Shown here one piece after another: positions 9,535-13,543 of a stretch of DNA of 64,000 bases. The translations under genes were made by a program, and so were the position numbers. The notes below the pieces were generated by a model that worked only from the letters and a program-made list of their open reading frames with translations, had not been told where the DNA came from and ran no database searches. Numbering within the stretch: the stretch's first letter is position 1; each line of letters begins with the position of its first letter. Origin of the DNA: Thermoproteota archaeon (lineage in GTDB: Archaea; Asgardarchaeota; Jordiarchaeia; Jordiarchaeales; Freyrarchaeaceae); assembly GCA_029258835.1 (NCBI GenBank), contig JAPDJY010000030.1:64001-128000 (forward strand), read 5' to 3'.

Positions 9535-10440
9535 TTGAAAAGTATCTTTAAAATCAGAAAGGCGGCGGAAAAATTGCTGAAGTTTATAGACGCCCATATA
9601 CACCTTCTTCCTAAGAAAATGCTCAGCAACCAAGTTTTAACACTCATGAAAAGTTTCTTCCAAGTTGACCCCAACTTTTACCTTCAAATCTCTCAAAGCC
9701 CCGACAACCTGATAAAATACTTAGATCAACACAACGTAGAGGCTGTAGCAATAATGTCGTATCCAGCCCCAGACGTCATGGGGTGGGGAGACGAGCTAGT
9801 CGACTCAGTGGCAGAATACACGAAGCACCACCCAGACAGGCTCTTATTCTTCTGCTCGGTGCACCCCCGCCTCGAAGAAAAACCGGTGGAAAGGCTGGAA
9901 CACCTCTACAGCAAGTACGAGGTAAAAGGGATAAAGCTCCACCCAGTACACCAGCTGTTCAAGCCAAACGCTTACCGCCCAGAAGAGCAAAACATGAAAA
10001 CACTAGACCAAATATACCAGTTCGCAGTCGACCACAACCTCCCAGTGCTTTTCCACACAGGAACAAGCATATTCCCAAAAGCACGAAACAAGTACGGAGA
10101 CCCACTCTTCCTAGACGACGTAGCAACAGACTACCCAAAAATGAAGATAATCATGAGCCATGGAGGACGCCCCATCTGGATGAAAACAGCAACATTCCTC
10201 CTAAGAAGACACCCAAACATAATCCTAGACATCTCAAGCATACCACCCCAAAAAATAACACATTACTTCCCCAACATAGAAAAACTAGCCGACAAAGCAA
10301 TATTCGGCTCAGACTGGCCCGGACCAGGAGTATCCACAATACACGGCAACATACAACAACTCCTAAACACCAACCTCACCCAACCAGCAAAAAAGAAGAT
10401 ACTCTACGAAAACGCAGCAAAACTCCTCCTAAAAACCTAA
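9535..10440 (+). CDS. Amidohydrolase_2 family metal-dependent hydrolase (true start likely ~9574-9577)
   Basis: IDAHIH, GIKLHP, FHTG, SHGG, FGSDWP, ENAAKLL. Confidence 0.88.
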   Translation: MKSIFKIRKAAEKLLKFIDAHIHLLPKKMLSNQVLTLMKSFFQVDPNFYLQISQSPDNLIKYLDQHNVEAVAIMSYPAPDVMGWGDELVDSVAEYTKHHPDRLLFFCSVHPRLEEKPVERLEHLYSKYEVKGIKLHPVHQLFKPNAYRPEEQNMKTLDQIYQFAVDHNLPVLFHTGTSIFPKARNKYGDPLFLDDVATDYPKMKIIMSHGGRPIWMKTATFLLRRHPNIILDISSIPPQKITHYFPNIEKLADKAIFGSDWPGPGVSTIHGNIQQLLNTNLTQPAKKKILYENAAKLLLKT

Positions 10441-10656
10441 GAGAAAACACCCTCAAAAACTCAGCACACACCCCTCAACACCAGCAACCTCCAGCCTAAT
10501 CATCCCATTCAACCAAAACATTCCATCAAAACACAATAAGCAGCCAAAGAAGACAACGAAAACCCAACCAAGAAACCGCCATGTTGGTAAGATTTTTAAA
10601 TGTTTATTCCAAATGGTGAACCTGAAGCTCAACCCTACCACATACCATGTGAGCGT

Positions 10657-10734
10657 AGCGGGGTGGGGTAGTCAGGAGATCCCGCGGGGCTCATAACCCC
10701 GAGATCGGTGGTTCAAATCCACCCCCCGCTACCA
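10657..10734 (+). tRNA. Initiator tRNA-Met(CAU), intron-less, CCA encoded
   Basis: A1-U72 pair, GGG/CCC anticodon stem, CTCATAA loop, GGTTCAAATCC. Confidence 0.95.
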
Positions 10735-10759
10735 ACAGCTCCTTCTCCCGCAAAAAGAG

Positions 10760-11042
10760 GGCTGTCGGTGGGTTCGAACCCGCAGCCAGCGGGTTACAAC
10801 TGCGGGGTTCACGCTTGGTAGGTTTTTATGGGTGGATGTGGTTTTGGTCTGTCAGGTGTTTCCCCGTCATCGAAGCATAAGCCTCTGATGGGGCTTTCGG
10901 GGTAACCCCGGAGCCACGCGTCCGAAGACTCCACCCATAAGCCACCCCGTGGCCAAACCAGCACCCCAAACACTCACCGAGTATTTAACTGCTTCGCAAG
11001 GCGCATCACGCATCCGTTGCTCCACCGCTAAGTTACGCCGGC
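10760..11042 (-). pseudogene. Decayed tRNA-Thr(UGU)-like gene interrupted by the 200-bp element
   Basis: 5' half GCCGGCGTAACTTAGCGGTGGAGCAACGGA (11042-11013) and 3' half TTGTAACCCGCTGGCTGCGGGTTCGAACCCACCGACAGC (10799-10761) flank the repeat. Confidence 0.55.
10804..11003 (-). mobile_element. 200-bp non-autonomous element / ncRNA gene, copy A (TnpB omegaRNA/HgcC-like core with own promoter)
   Basis: About 92% identical (hand alignment) to 57460-57659; BRE/TATA-like CGAAGCAGTTAAATA; core GGCTCCGGGGTTACCCCGAAAGCCCC...CGATGACGGGGAAA. Confidence 0.7.
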
Positions 11043-11206
11043 ATTTTAACGTTTTAATGTTTCAGCTACACTGTCCTCCGCCATGACGACTAATTTCAGC
11101 AGCCATAACAGTATTTGTATTATTGCGTCCCAGACTGGCCTGTTACCTCTCCTTTTCGCCCCGCCCTCCAACCTTAGTGTGTCTCAAGGGCTTTAAGGAG
11201 CTGCCA

Positions 11207-11396
11207 AGGGCTGCCCGCCAACTCTTTTCACGGCTTCTAGGATGCGGAAGAATTGGTAAAATTAGTGAGAACGGTGGTAGCGGGGGGTGGATTTGAACCA
11301 CCGATCCACCCATCCCAACAAACGATTACACACAAATCTTACCAACCCTCCACGTCCTAGAAGCCGCGAAAAAGGTTGGTAAGACGTGGCAGCCCT
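11207..11396. repeat. Imperfect ~60-bp inverted-repeat arms (11207-11267 / 11331-11396) around an att-like core
   Basis: CGGCTTCTAGGA (11231-11242) and TCCTAGAAGCCG (11355-11366) match perfectly; similarity extends out to AGGGCTGCC/GGCAGCCCT. Confidence 0.7.
11275..11306 (-). repeat. Perfect 32-bp inverted copy of tRNA-iMet 3' end (att-like core)
   Basis: Reverse complement equals 10703-10734 GATCGGTGGTTCAAATCCACCCCCCGCTACCA. Confidence 0.92.
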
Positions 11397-11472
11397 CCCT
11401 CTGCAAGCGGCTCCGAGGCTCCTGCTACAGCCCCTGAGGAGCCCTGAGGCTCCGAGCAGGGCTTCCCGGCGG

Positions 11473-11991
11473 TCAGCGTTTCCTCCCCTTGCAGCCCGTG
11501 GATGCGGCTGCCTCCCGGCTGCTGCCTGCAGGAGCAGCGTCCGCGGACGCCGCAGGGCCAGCCAGCCCCCCCTCCCTGACCAGCTCAACCAGCTCCCCCA
11601 ACCTCCTATCCAAACGCTCCAAAACCTCCAGACGCTCCAGGGCCTCCAGCTTCCGGTCCATGCTGTCCAGCTTCTTCAGCTGTTTTAGTTGCTTCAGCTG
11701 TTTGTCCATTTTTTCTAGCTGCTGGGTCATTCTGGCCGTGTGTCTTGCTGTGGCTACTTCTGCTCCTGCCTCTATTGCTCCTGCTGCGGCGTCCACTCCT
11801 GCCGCCGCGGCCCCCAGGGGGCTGGGGGACGCTGCACCCTTCAGGAGGCCTCCGGCAGCCCTGAGCAGGCCCGCCGCAGCCCCCAGGACACCCGGCCTGC
11901 CAAGAAGCCCACCCCTGCCCTTACCCCTCTTCCTGCTTTCAGCCTTCCTCCTGCCTCCGGGCTTCTTCCTGGATTTTGGCAACGTGGACAC
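11473..11991 (-). CDS. Orphan protein: basic N-terminus, Gly/Ala-rich segment, coiled coil
   Basis: Heptad-like LKQLKQLKKLD/LEALERLEVLERLD; TATA-like GTTATAT about 25 nt upstream of the GTG; GC-richer than neighbours. Confidence 0.6.
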   Translation of the reverse strand: MSTLPKSRKKPGGRRKAESRKRGKGRGGLLGRPGVLGAAAGLLRAAGGLLKGAASPSPLGAAAAGVDAAAGAIEAGAEVATARHTARMTQQLEKMDKQLKQLKQLKKLDSMDRKLEALERLEVLERLDRRLGELVELVREGGLAGPAASADAAPAGSSREAAASTGCKGRKR

Positions 11992-12298
11992 CGTTTAACA
12001 CTTTGCAGCCGCGGAATATAACTGTACTGTTTGTTGTGGTTGAGGTTGGTGGTTTAAACTATTTGTGTTACTGATGGCTTTTTCTTATCTTCTTAGGGGC
12101 TGGGATCAGATTGAGGGTTATGGTGTTAAACTGGGTTGTTTCTTTGCTTGTATTAGGGGTGTTGTGTTTGGCTTTCTGGGTGTGGGGGTCGTCATTGTTA
12201 ATGTTTTTGTTTGGGTTTGAGAGGTTTTGTTGGTTTTCATCTGTTTGTTTGTCGTTGTGTTTCTCCGTTGTTGTCGTTAAGTTTATTTTTTTGTCTTT

Positions 12299-13543
12299 TT
12301 GATTGGTTGTGGGGGTGTCTGCTTGTTTAGGGAGCGTATTGGTTATTATGGTATTCTCTTGTTTGGTCTTGTTAGTCTTTTTGCGGATGTTGTGTATGAA
12401 GGTGCGAGGAGTGTTATTCCTGACTTTTTGAAGGTTCTTGGTGCTTCGGCTACGGTTGTGGGTTTTGTTATTGGTTTGGGGGAGTTTGTCGGGTATGTTG
12501 TTAGGCTTCCTAGTGGCTTCTTGGCTGATGCGAGTGGTAAGTACTGGCGTTTCATTTTCTTCGGGTATTGCTTGACGCTTTTTTCTGTTCCGGCTCTTGC
12601 CTTGGTTGGACGCTGGGAGCTTGCCGCGTTGCTAATCTTTGTTGAGCGGTTTGGAAAAGCCTTTAGAACTCCCTCTAGGGATGCGGCTCTGTCGATTGTT
12701 ACGCGTGATGTTGGTGCTGGTAAAGCCTTTGGCCTCCATGAGCTTATGGATCAGGTGGGGGCGGTTGCAGGGCCCTTAATTGTCTCTATGGCGCTGGCTT
12801 TCTCGCTTGGTAGCATGCACTTTTCCTTCTCCGTTCTTATACTTCCTGCTCTAGCTTCTCTGGCCTTCCTCTACCTGGCGTATGTTAAGCTTCGCGGTTA
12901 CGTTGGTGGTGAGCCACGGCCGAGAAAAGCTAGGATATCGGTTAAGAATCTTGATAGGCGATTTTGGATTTATAATGTTGCAGCCGTGTTGAGCGTAACC
13001 GGGTTCCTGCACTATAGCCTTATAGCCTACAGGATGGCTGGCTTAACTCCTTCATGGGTCATACCCGTTGTCTTCGCTGCGGCTATGGGTGTGGATGCGG
13101 TGGCTGCCGTGGCGCTGGGCTTCGCCTACGACCGCTTCGGATTAAAGGTTTTCTGGTTCATTCTGGCCGTCTCGGCGCTACCTGCCATTTTAGCGATTAA
13201 AGCAGATGTTCTTCTCCTGTCGGTTGCCATCCTGCTTTTCGGCGTTGGTATGGGGGCTCAGGAGTCTGTTTATAGGTCTGCGGTAGCCGACCTGTCTCCG
13301 CTGGAAATGCGTGGGACAGCCTATGGCTTCTTTAACACGTTCTATGGTTTAGCTTGGCTGATAGGCGGCTTCACCATGGGGTTCATGTACGACTTGAGTG
13401 CGGCTGTCGGCCCCCTCCTCGTAGCCGCATTTTCAATCGCATGCCAGTTGTCGGCAGCCATCCTGTTGGCACTCCTCCTAGTATCTCTAAGGAGAAGCGG
13501 CGTAGAGGAGGGTGTGAAGAGCAGTGCCTCCCCCTCAGCCTAA
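12299..13543 (+). CDS. MFS transporter
   Basis: About 12 hydrophobic segments; SGFLADASG, ERFGKAFRTPSRDA, RGTAYGFF. Confidence 0.9.
   Translation: MIGCGGVCLFRERIGYYGILLFGLVSLFADVVYEGARSVIPDFLKVLGASATVVGFVIGLGEFVGYVVRLPSGFLADASGKYWRFIFFGYCLTLFSVPALALVGRWELAALLIFVERFGKAFRTPSRDAALSIVTRDVGAGKAFGLHELMDQVGAVAGPLIVSMALAFSLGSMHFSFSVLILPALASLAFLYLAYVKLRGYVGGEPRPRKARISVKNLDRRFWIYNVAAVLSVTGFLHYSLIAYRMAGLTPSWVIPVVFAAAMGVDAVAAVALGFAYDRFGLKVFWFILAVSALPAILAIKADVLLLSVAILLFGVGMGAQESVYRSAVADLSPLEMRGTAYGFFNTFYGLAWLIGGFTMGFMYDLSAAVGPLLVAAFSIACQLSAAILLALLLVSLRRSGVEEGVKSSASPSA

Follow-up and report, generated by a model that had tools for sequence, protein, structure and literature searches.

The abrupt change in strand composition beside the initiator tRNA gene (tRNA-iMet) has dozens of counterparts beside tRNA, rRNA and CRISPR loci in a hot-spring Asgard archaeon and its relatives. 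Since dozens of these loci share the feature, it points to a local mutation process that acts on one strand and runs outward, rather than to the replication origin of the chromosome. Our best guess as to the cause, to which we assign a probability of about 40%, is that non-coding transcripts set out from the tRNA locus and leave the non-template strand exposed.

Two oppositely polarised arms flank the tRNA-iMet gene

The locus lies in a window of 64,000 nucleotides, in which an earlier note had described a top strand turning from A/C-rich to G/T-rich beside tRNA-iMet. Base counts and third-position profiles demonstrate that this flip is genuine, and the counts given for two 60-nt segments proved exact (A29 C19 T8 G4 at 10201-10260 and T31 G20 A6 C3 at 12181-12240). 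The top strand is composed of A 0.41, C 0.32, G 0.135 and T 0.14 between 9900 and 10560 (A+C minus G+T = +0.45) and of T 0.46, G 0.31, A 0.11 and C 0.115 between 12001 and 12600 (-0.55). When this index was calculated in 300-nt windows over the whole 2.72-Mb genome, its SD was 0.119 and its 0.1 and 99.9 percentiles were -0.51 and +0.58; the right arm, at -0.63, is within the ten most G/T-rich places genome-wide. C and A are depleted jointly on one strand in a manner graded with distance from the start, both arms decaying exponentially, with a fitted amplitude of 0.63 and a decay length of ~420 nt on the left and 0.76 and ~840 nt on the right. The single flip point of the original description, however, resolves into two one-sided boundaries, at ~10568-10581 and ~12027-12031, which are 1.45 kb apart and enclose unskewed DNA with a higher G+C content than the contig (59% vs 47%).

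Table 1. Features of the tRNA-iMet locus, with positions in the window
Feature	Position	Strand	Basis or remark
Amidohydrolase gene, 301 aa	9535..10440	+	Pfam Amidohydro_2, E 1.9e-37
Left arm	9900..10568	-	Bottom strand, 5'->3' away from tRNA, G/T-rich; top strand A/C-rich; abrupt end ~10568
AT-rich promoter-like segment, 5' of tRNA	10578..10610	+	Sequence reading; putative promoter
Initiator tRNA-Met gene, anticodon CAT	10657..10734	+	ARAGORN; Rfam tRNA 62.5 bits
Unskewed central block, young/mobile DNA	10735..12000		59% G+C; no strand bias in 200-nt windows
MITE-like repeat copy, ~200 bp	10804..11003		blastn vs genome: ~30 matches, 76-93% identity
Inverted copy of tRNA-iMet 3' end, 32 nt, att-like remnant	11275..11306	-	Inverted repeat I1
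Low-complexity ORF, 172 aa, doubtful gene	11473..11991	-	No Pfam family
TATA-like word GGAATATAAC	12012..12024		Directly before abrupt start of right arm; putative promoter
Right arm	12027..13300	+	Top strand G/T-rich, peak 12030-12500, fading into MFS gene
MFS transporter gene	12299..13543	+	Pfam MFS_1, E 5.5e-30

As previously stated, both flanking protein genes are on the + strand and the bias extends into their synonymous sites, at the 3' end of the amidohydrolase gene and the 5' end of the MFS gene. At third positions, the final 100 codons of the former have A50 C40 G8 T2 (90% A/C) and the initial 100 codons of the latter T59 G28 C12 A1 (87% G/T). In bins of 50 codons, the third-position A/C fraction of the amidohydrolase gene rises toward its 3' end (0.56, 0.70, 0.70, 0.88, 0.86, 0.94), compared with 0.3-0.76 in its orthologues, and changes relative to these orthologues are directed toward A/C among both transitions (40 vs 11) and transversions (17 vs 4). 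The third-position G/T profile of the MFS gene (0.90, 0.84, 0.70, 0.66, 0.62, 0.54) reaches ~50% by codon 250-300; the profile of its relatives is flat, at 0.4-0.6. The same gradient had been suggested as something to look for at orthologous loci, but it is absent from the amidohydrolase and MFS orthologues of related genomes, and the two genes are not adjacent in the relatives compared.

The AT-rich segment upstream of the tRNA gene contains a TATA-like TTTTTAAAT at ~10585-10593, the recurrent word GTTGGTAAGA and, near 10600, the word TTCCAAATGG that the earlier note had picked out. The TATA-like box is ~65 nt upstream of the tRNA and the left arm stops ~17-25 nt to the left of this box, while the right arm begins ~10 nt past GGAATATAAC. 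In the young block between the arms, the inverted repeat (10703-10734 vs 11275-11306) is 100% complementary. A perfect 32-nt copy of a tRNA 3' end beside foreign DNA is what is expected of an att site in a tRNA gene, but the copy is inverted, not direct; no integrase gene was seen within the block. The doubtful ORF in this block has no homologue among 5.8 billion proteins.

The tracts recur beside stable-RNA genes and CRISPR arrays

Genome-wide there are 13 abrupt A/C-to-G/T boundaries (23 with a looser cut-off) against 1 of the opposite sign; the G/T-rich strand is thus the one running away from the boundary in 13 cases vs 1. The 16S gene has flips at both ends, the 23S gene is weak in this respect, and 7 of the 8 CRISPR array ends show an outward G+T excess, of 0.33-0.91. 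Over all tRNA genes identified by ARAGORN, the mean left minus right A+C skew is +0.163 and is positive in 19 of 22 (P<5e-5). Tract starts are located outside confident genes in 28 of 33 cases, though 73% of the genome is coding, and neither AT-runs nor TATA-like words are enriched at these starts over random intergenic DNA. The pooled tracts contain A 0.087, C 0.102, G 0.373 and T 0.438, vs ~0.25 each genome-wide. Arms extend for 0.4-2 kb and are commonly one-sided, and single loci reach 80-95% G+T. Some flips fall within ORFs at points with no evident promoter, as at codon 81 of the EF-2 gene (in frame just before DTPGH) and in an ORF on contig C10. A second tRNA-iMet 3' fragment, next to a lone CRISPR repeat, bounds an extreme tract at C2:141.2 kb (C2 being the contig of the locus described here). 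Among strongly skewed genes the coding strand is G/T-rich in 66 and A/C-rich in 46. The highly expressed three thermosome genes and L2 neighbourhood are unskewed, the average over all gene starts has no upstream antisense signature, and the spacers in both 105-repeat CRISPR arrays are unbiased on the sense strand, including those at the old end beside a tract.

In three relatives (G002, G001 and G006), tRNA-iMet has unrelated neighbours, yet a G/T arm lies immediately downstream; an upstream A/C arm is also present in G002, whereas G001 and G006 have the downstream arm only. The same arms flank the 16S gene in four genomes of the order Jordarchaeales and are absent from the 16S flanks of an outgroup family. 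Of the 11 genomes of the order, all separate assemblies, 9 (this genome and 8 of 10 relatives) have the pattern at the same kinds of locus. Since the same arms accompany tRNA-iMet and 16S despite differing neighbours, it is the stable-RNA locus that sets the pattern. The clade is described as thermophilic and of hot-spring provenance. The clade possesses genes for uracil-DNA glycosylase and endonuclease V, hence there is no obvious repair defect behind the extreme amplitude.

Outward non-coding transcription as a tentative explanation

We propose a polar mutation process that sets out from many fixed points, among them the tRNA-iMet locus. It would cause C->T and A->G changes on whichever strand leads away from such a point in the 5'->3' direction and would fade over ~0.4-0.8 kb. 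Its likeliest cause would be non-coding RNA synthesis that leaves the locus toward both sides. The rightward RNA could arise by read-through or from a promoter near 12.02 kb, and the leftward RNA would be an upstream antisense transcript from the TATA box of the tRNA. Because these outward RNAs would be untranslated, the non-template strand may be left single-stranded in an R-loop-like state and, in a thermophile, might be deaminated faster than it is repaired. Only the flanks would record the bias, since selection keeps the tRNA intact. Mobile DNA of ~1.3 kb was inserted later at the tRNA 3' end, displacing the right arm from the gene. The data show the tracts with their polarity, start points and association with stable-RNA loci across the clade, as well as the young insert; the causes that we infer are transcription, R-loops and deamination.

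A G/T-rich outward strand is the sign that we would expect for the non-template strand of outward transcription, and is opposite to that predicted if 3' tails were deaminated where a break is resected. The tract centres are untranslated, strongly transcribed loci, namely 16S, tRNA, CRISPR and, weakly, 23S. In archaea, a single TATA box can direct transcription both ways, from start sites separated by ~50 bp, also where the promoter lies between head-to-tail genes (Grunberger et al., 2019; PMC6640164). An antisense start ~50 bp upstream of the sense start matches the geometry of the amidohydrolase/tRNA-iMet junction, although those data are RNA data from Pyrococcus with no mutational footprint reported, and the antisense start at the junction here would be a putative one. 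The flanks of eukaryotic tRNA genes have mutation rates 7-10 times the average, attributed to transcription, with ribosomal-protein genes spared (Thornlow et al., 2018; PMC6130373), which is paralleled here by the unskewed thermosome and L2 genes. The account is also favoured by the dependence of the pattern on the stable-RNA locus and not on its neighbours, by the TATA-like words close to both arms, by the position of most tract starts outside confident genes and by the described thermophily of the clade.

The two arms do not fit this account equally. Since the MFS gene is on the + strand and the + strand is G/T-rich, the right arm fits a non-template G+T excess, whereas the left arm needs a hypothetical antisense RNA because the coding strand of the amidohydrolase gene is A/C-rich. 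Moreover, transcription level alone is insufficient, given that the thermosome genes and the L2 neighbourhood are unskewed and that the average gene start lacks an antisense signature; the refinement that the RNA must be untranslated is ad hoc. Observations that run against the transcription account are the unskewed CRISPR spacers, the flips inside ORFs with no evident promoter, the AT-runs and TATA-like words, which are not enriched at tract starts, and the uracil-DNA glycosylase and endonuclease V genes of the clade.

Alternative mechanisms

It is possible, though unlikely, that the arms record recurrent breaks or nicks at fixed fragile or recombination sites, in this case the tRNA-iMet 3' end as an integration hotspot, followed by outward refilling after 5' resection. 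The refilling polymerase would mostly make G:T mispairs, so that the new outward-running strand gains G and T. The centre of the locus is visibly a recombination hotspot, carrying the 32-nt inverted tRNA 3' copy, the MITE copy and orphan DNA, and a tRNA-iMet 3' fragment with a lone CRISPR repeat ends the extreme tract at C2:141.2 kb. Breaks would also cover the flips inside ORFs, and the decay over 0.4-0.8 kb resembles gene-conversion tracts, which are of comparable length. However, the simplest form of this model, in which surviving 3' tails are deaminated, would predict the opposite sign, so that the model depends on a polymerase with a particular bias in its errors. Furthermore, the pattern is present at nearly all tRNA genes, yet few of these can be integration sites, and one-sided arms are common, whereas resection is normally two-sided.

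We consider it improbable that the locus is a non-canonical replication initiation zone, either R-loop-primed or Orc-independent and one of many at open, strongly transcribed loci, in which the lagging-strand template would remain unpaired over the several hundred bases nearest the start in either direction. The sign is as at bidirectional origins, and the only ORB cluster in the genome (C1:157.1-158.9 kb, with G-strings and inverted pairs, adjoining orc1) shows a moderate flip of the same sign (+0.49 then -0.43); several flips elsewhere are centred on AT-rich islands. Nevertheless, there are at least 23 boundaries in addition to 19 of 22 tRNA genes, and the arms are often one-sided, as downstream of tRNA-iMet in G001 and G006, or start well apart, as they do here (1.45 kb). 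The locus has neither ORB nor orc1, and there is no skew change beyond ~1 kb, whereas replication-linked asymmetry normally covers whole replichores and does not fade within 1 kb.

Selection on composition itself is a still more doubtful explanation, according to which an A/C-only leader and a G/U-only trailer, unstructured or pairing mutually, would aid RNA processing, or the composition would shape chromatin. The association with 16S and tRNA-iMet is conserved across the order and RNA of A and C alone cannot fold on itself, but the bias enters synonymous sites of unrelated neighbour genes with smooth fading over distance, the neighbours differ among genomes, and arms are also located beside CRISPR trailer ends and within ORFs.

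A classical Orc1/Cdc6-dependent chromosomal origin, or a terminus, is highly improbable at this locus. At archaeal origins, ORB or mini-ORB repeats, usually inverted, flank an AT-rich unwinding element, and an adjacent orc1/cdc6 gene is usual, not obligatory; an origin of this canonical form lies on C1, at the ORB cluster beside orc1. In favour of such an origin at tRNA-iMet there are just the flip's sign and TTCCAAATGG, an AT-rich word. The window contains no Cdc6/Orc1 gene, in line with the earlier note, the three Cdc6_C matches being on C1 (two) and C14 and none on C2; that note's failure to see a convincing ORB array is likewise borne out, as an ORB search with the core TTCCASTKGAAA (up to one mismatch) returned zero matches in C2:73000-77500. 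No long-range skew switch accompanies the locus, the keto index of the adjoining 30 kb being -0.076 on the left side and -0.036 on the right, although archaeal skews are often weak and this is soft evidence alone. Many equally sharp flips occur elsewhere in the genome, an observation that the earlier note had itself named as refuting an origin. A terminus is ruled out because the sign is that of outward-moving and not converging synthesis, for which the opposite sign would be expected. Hence, of the original inference, the site of persistent strand-asymmetric mutation is supported and the origin or terminus is not.

Finally, it is extremely improbable that the flip stems from a chimeric junction or another artefact of assembly or sequencing, for which nothing but the abrupt boundaries speaks, since the ORFs are intact and encode conserved proteins and the pattern recurs at the same kinds of locus in 9 of 11 separately assembled genomes.

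Comparison with known systems and wider implications

Mammalian genes reportedly carry a transcription-associated strand asymmetry at their 5' ends, mirrored upstream of bidirectional promoters. The tracts resemble this asymmetry, in which the non-template strand has a G+T excess from the transcription start site that decays over 1-2 kb and has a mirror arm. The mammalian effect, however, is a shift of a few percent that is visible only in averages over thousands of genes, whereas here 80-95% G+T is reached at single loci, with synonymous sites close to saturation and no skew at ordinary promoters. In vertebrate mitochondrial DNA, one strand is C- and A-depleted and becomes more G/T-rich the longer it stays single-stranded, a gradient that spans the whole genome and is attributed to strand-displacement replication. 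The pooled tracts likewise have one strand short of both C and A, but they are kilobase-scale arms, dozens of which are scattered over a 2.7-Mb chromosome. The archaeal oriC, in which ORB elements surround an AT-rich unwinding element next to orc1/cdc6, shares the local flip sign (the flip at the organism's own C1 origin is weaker); the tRNA-iMet locus differs in having no ORB, orc1/cdc6 or replichore-scale skew change. Eukaryotic tRNA genes are likewise conserved islands between hypermutated flanks in which transitions dominate (Thornlow et al., 2018; PMC6130373), but those flanks extend over tens of bases with no oppositely polarised arms described, whereas the arms here are strand-polar, 0.4-2 kb long and reach into neighbour genes.

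There is a small chance, in our estimation, that DNA synthesis in Jordarchaeales, and possibly in other Asgard archaea, initiates repeatedly at fixed sites, dozens in number, that are open and strongly transcribed. Such sites could comprise all stable-RNA genes, CRISPR arrays and some intragenic points, with the flip at tRNA-iMet as one zone, and the repeated synthesis could be replication, R-loop-primed or break-induced. If this were true, these prokaryotes would initiate synthesis in many local zones, much as eukaryotes do, and each zone would leave a miniature of the skew jumps at mammalian origins.

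Strand skew on either side of the initiator tRNA gene

From the sequence alone, an earlier note had placed a candidate replication origin (or terminus) at the tRNA-iMet gene (9900-12600), where the top strand changes abruptly from A/C-rich to G/T-rich. The extreme local counts on which it drew were reproduced exactly, with 4 G at 10201-10260 and 3 C at 12181-12240, and A+C makes up 73% of the top strand at 9900-10560 and G+T 77% at 12001-12600. In this draft genome (G000; 2.72 Mb in 91 contigs), of which the window is C2:64001-128000, the standard deviation of the skew index is 0.119 over 300-nt windows, and on the same windows the right arm is one of the ten most G/T-rich places genome-wide. 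Both flanking genes, Amidohydro_2 and MFS_1, lie on the + strand, as had been claimed, and the bias reported at synonymous positions is present in the third codon positions of both: the last 100 codons of the amidohydrolase end in A50 C40 G8 T2 and the first 100 of the MFS transporter in T59 G28 C12 A1. Exponential fits give skew decay lengths of ~420 nt for the left arm and ~840 nt for the right. The change does not have a single flip point: there are two one-sided boundaries, at ~10568-10581 and ~12027-12031, with 1.45 kb of DNA without skew between them.

Comparable gradients were absent from the orthologues of ten genomes, four from the same family and six from the same order, a comparison that for the MFS gene uses third-position profiles alone and in which the relatives' proteins are 61-76% identical, so that ancestral states at silent sites are not reconstructable. 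The amidohydrolase orthologue of one relative (L017, G004:C60:5431-6291) carries an in-frame TGA, which could be a sequencing error, a mark of a pseudogene or recoding.

The DNA between the two arms

Features of the tRNA-iMet locus (window coordinates)
Feature	Position	Strand	Remarks
Amidohydro_2 gene	9535-10440	+	left flank
tRNA-iMet gene	10657-10734		found by ARAGORN and Rfam
~200-bp MITE-like repeat copy	10804-11003		~30 other genome copies on many contigs, 76-93% identity
Perfect 32-nt inverted copy of tRNA-iMet 3′ end	10703-10734 vs 11275-11306		540 nt downstream of gene
MFS_1 transporter gene	12299-13543	+	right flank

The 1.27 kb that follow tRNA-iMet have a G+C content of 59%, against 47% for the contig, and include a low-complexity ORF of 172 aa for which neither a Pfam family nor a homologue was found. 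Rfam at E<=1 over 8000-14000 gave no RNA match besides the tRNA. The block consists of young and mobile DNA, and the tRNA gene beside it is a hotspot of integration. Since the G/T arm of relatives starts immediately after tRNA-iMet, we infer that the insert displaced a pre-existing right arm from the gene; an independent start of that arm at a TATA-like word (12012-12024) is equally possible.

Further copies of the MITE-like repeat lie, for example, at C2:121460-121659 and C15:49975-50175. Transition counts against the consensus are lopsided in single copies (e.g. 13 vs 1; 1 vs 11), a hint that strand asymmetry acts locally beyond the strong tracts too. Used as neutral clocks, the copies gave no correlation between transition asymmetry and the skew of their flanks (Spearman 0.10, P 0.66), and 0 copies lie in strong tracts.

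A second 3′ fragment of tRNA-iMet, joined to a solitary degenerate CRISPR repeat, lies 65 kb away (L008:5240-5310; C2:141.24 kb); it adjoins HTH ORFs that resemble excisionases and stands at the end of an extreme A/C tract. The word GTTGGTAAGA(C/T/A)G, which may be a piece of an integrase or promoter site, is repeated near tRNA-iMet and the att-like fragments (window 10578 and 11385; L008:5376, 6445 and 6790).

Skewed tracts across the genome

A genome-wide scan identified ~50 strongly skewed segments. Abrupt changes were scored by subtracting the skew of the 400 nt on the right from that of the 400 nt on the left, which gives a value independent of the strand read; by this measure the boundaries pass from A/C to G/T at 13 loci and in the opposite direction at 1, and a looser cut-off yields 23 boundaries, in many cases one-sided. 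A polarity rule follows: tracts start abruptly and fade gradually, and the G/T-rich strand is the one running 5′ to 3′ away from the start. On this strand the pooled strong tracts have base frequencies of A 0.09, C 0.10, G 0.37 and T 0.44, so that C and A are both depleted. Tract starts fall outside confident genes in 28 of 33 cases, as judged with a home-made gene caller, though the genome is 73% coding.

Stable RNA genes and CRISPR arrays recur at tract starts. The 16S gene has two of the strongest arms, one on each side, and the 23S gene has weak flanking arms; the two genes (G000:C3:6053-7548 and C14:13767-16845) are unlinked on separate contigs. Among 22 assessable tRNA genes, from an ARAGORN set of only 23, some of them doubtful in this intron-rich genome, the left-minus-right A+C skew averages +0.163 and is positive in 19 (P<5e-5 against random positions), a result that survives the removal of tRNA-iMet. 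An outward G+T excess of 0.33-0.91 was found at 7 of 8 assessable CRISPR array ends. At other loci, Rfam matched the 16S gene alone among 13 further tract loci and gave no match at E<=0.1 for four more centres, which implies that several tract centres are without a recognised RNA gene. Flips also occur inside genes, in a C10 ORF and in EF-2 (C7, L037:2700-2730), where synonymous-codon bias changes from A/C-ending to G/T-ending at codon 81, just before the DTPGH motif; the AT-rich island at this flip (EYLINLVDTPGH) is in frame and is not an intron.

Several individual loci deserve mention. One CRISPR array, with 105 repeats that end in ATTGAAAG, has a leader (L007:3580-4010, C16:50580-51010) of ~94% A+C, and the tract extends ~2 kb across the divergent cas operon (Cas1). 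A small array with a different repeat (GTTTCAATCCCTTTCAGGGTTTTG...; G000:C90:281-1834) is without a flanking tract; C90 may be a contaminant contig, the MAG contamination estimate being 6%. An (AAAAC)n microsatellite of ~125 nt (G000:C35:3528-3654), adjoining an AT-rich intergenic region, lies exactly at a tract start. The EF-1alpha ORF (L004:2593-3837, C27) is G/T-rich at third positions over its entire length (0.62); it begins at position 16 of the GTP_EFTU profile, with the first ~15 residues absent.

Recurrence of the arms in related genomes

Among named relatives, the closest are Candidatus Jordarchaeia and Jordarchaeales MAGs of hot-spring origin, and the class Candidatus Jordarchaeia has been described as thermophilic (PMC9723677). 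Pure A/C or G/T run counts discriminate poorly from purine/pyrimidine runs, and tracts were instead scored as 80-mers with at least 77 A/C bases (up to 3 mismatches). Such stretches are present in the genome under study, in 3 of 4 same-family and 5 of 6 same-order genomes; elsewhere in the phylum just 2 of 30 genomes have them. Similar 16S arms, with skew to -0.77, occur in four genomes of the order, and the 16S flanks of an outgroup family have no arms. At tRNA-iMet, both arms are found in G002 and the downstream arm in G001 and G006; the neighbours in G002 are radical SAM, MazE and methyltransferase genes, whereas G006 has an OPT transporter and a convergent methyltransferase there. Because the arms recur at tRNA-iMet and 16S while the genes beside tRNA-iMet differ, the pattern is set by the stable-RNA locus rather than by the adjacent DNA.

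The canonical origin lies elsewhere

Of three Orc1/Cdc6 genes, two are on contig C1 and one is on C14, the last just downstream of the 23S gene. Beside the best-scoring gene, at C1:157100-158950 (L035:4150-5930), inverted pairs of origin recognition boxes (ORBs) with G-strings surround an AT-rich region. The boxes are of the types TTCCAGTTGAAATGAGGGGG and CTCCAGTGGAAA / CCACTGGAAA; the interval also contains a small ORF and three copies of the palindrome AACGTGTTAACA. This is a textbook replication origin and the sole clear ORB cluster, with G-strings and inverted pairs, in the genome, a looser three-hit group being present on C45; its own skew flips moderately and in the same sense (+0.49 then -0.43).

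The ORB core taken from this origin has no match at the tRNA-iMet locus, and skew does not change across 30 kb on each side of it. Lacking also an orc1 gene, and with arms that start apart, the locus is not supported as the chromosomal replication origin, and the sign of the flip excludes a terminus. Equally sharp flips elsewhere, which the earlier note itself had taken to speak against its proposal, number in the dozens; almost all tRNA genes show the pattern, and one-sided arms are frequent.

Possible causes of the tracts

A gain of G and T on the outward strand is expected in three settings: outward transcription with that strand as the non-template, new synthesis of that strand by an outward polymerase whose errors are mainly G:T mispairs, and outward replication with that strand as the lagging-strand template. 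We consider the first the leading candidate, with a probability of roughly 0.4: transcription running outward from the centre would expose the non-template strand. It is favoured because the centres are classical untranslated, heavily transcribed loci, because TATA-like words adjoin both arm starts at the tRNA-iMet locus, and because a process running in one direction naturally yields one-sided arms. It also gains from precedent, since archaeal TATA boxes fire both ways, head-to-tail gene pairs included (PMC6640164), and transcription-linked hypermutation occurs in eukaryotic tRNA flanks and is absent at ribosomal-protein genes (PMC6130373).

Several observations nevertheless weigh against transcription. 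The thermosome genes and those of the L2 cluster are without skew and the average over promoters and gene starts shows no upstream signature, which rules out expression level alone as the determinant. TATA-like words or AT-runs at tract starts do not exceed the intergenic background, and flips lie within the C10 ORF and EF-2. CRISPR spacers have no sense-strand bias and no trend along arrays; either they are too young or the process is inactive inside arrays. The genome and its order carry UDG and Endonuclease V family genes, so that loss of deamination repair is ruled out and a repair gap does not explain the amplitude.

Repair synthesis centred on breaks, which could supply a newly made outward strand, is an unlikely source of the tracts, and non-canonical replication initiation, which would make the outward strand a lagging-strand template, is more improbable still; part of the probability falls to none of the three. 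Two further schemes, deamination of 3′ tails after breakage and resection (by strand-polarity reasoning) and lagging-strand gaps at a fork stalled against the centre, predict the opposite sign, and the first was rejected for that reason.

Significance

Local strand asymmetry linked to transcription or replication is a known phenomenon, usually faint and visible only in averages over thousands of loci. In this genome individual loci approach saturation, with silent sites of neighbouring genes ~90% A/C or G/T less than 1 kb from a tRNA gene, and literature searches turned up no account of archaeal tracts saturated over kilobases. Such tracts are an annotation hazard, misleading codon-usage gene callers, horizontal-transfer detectors and skew-based origin finders. 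They also constitute a naturally amplified read-out of repeated strand exposure or resynthesis in organisms not yet cultivable, and may allow promoters, R-loop-prone loci, fragile sites or initiation zones to be mapped from sequence only.
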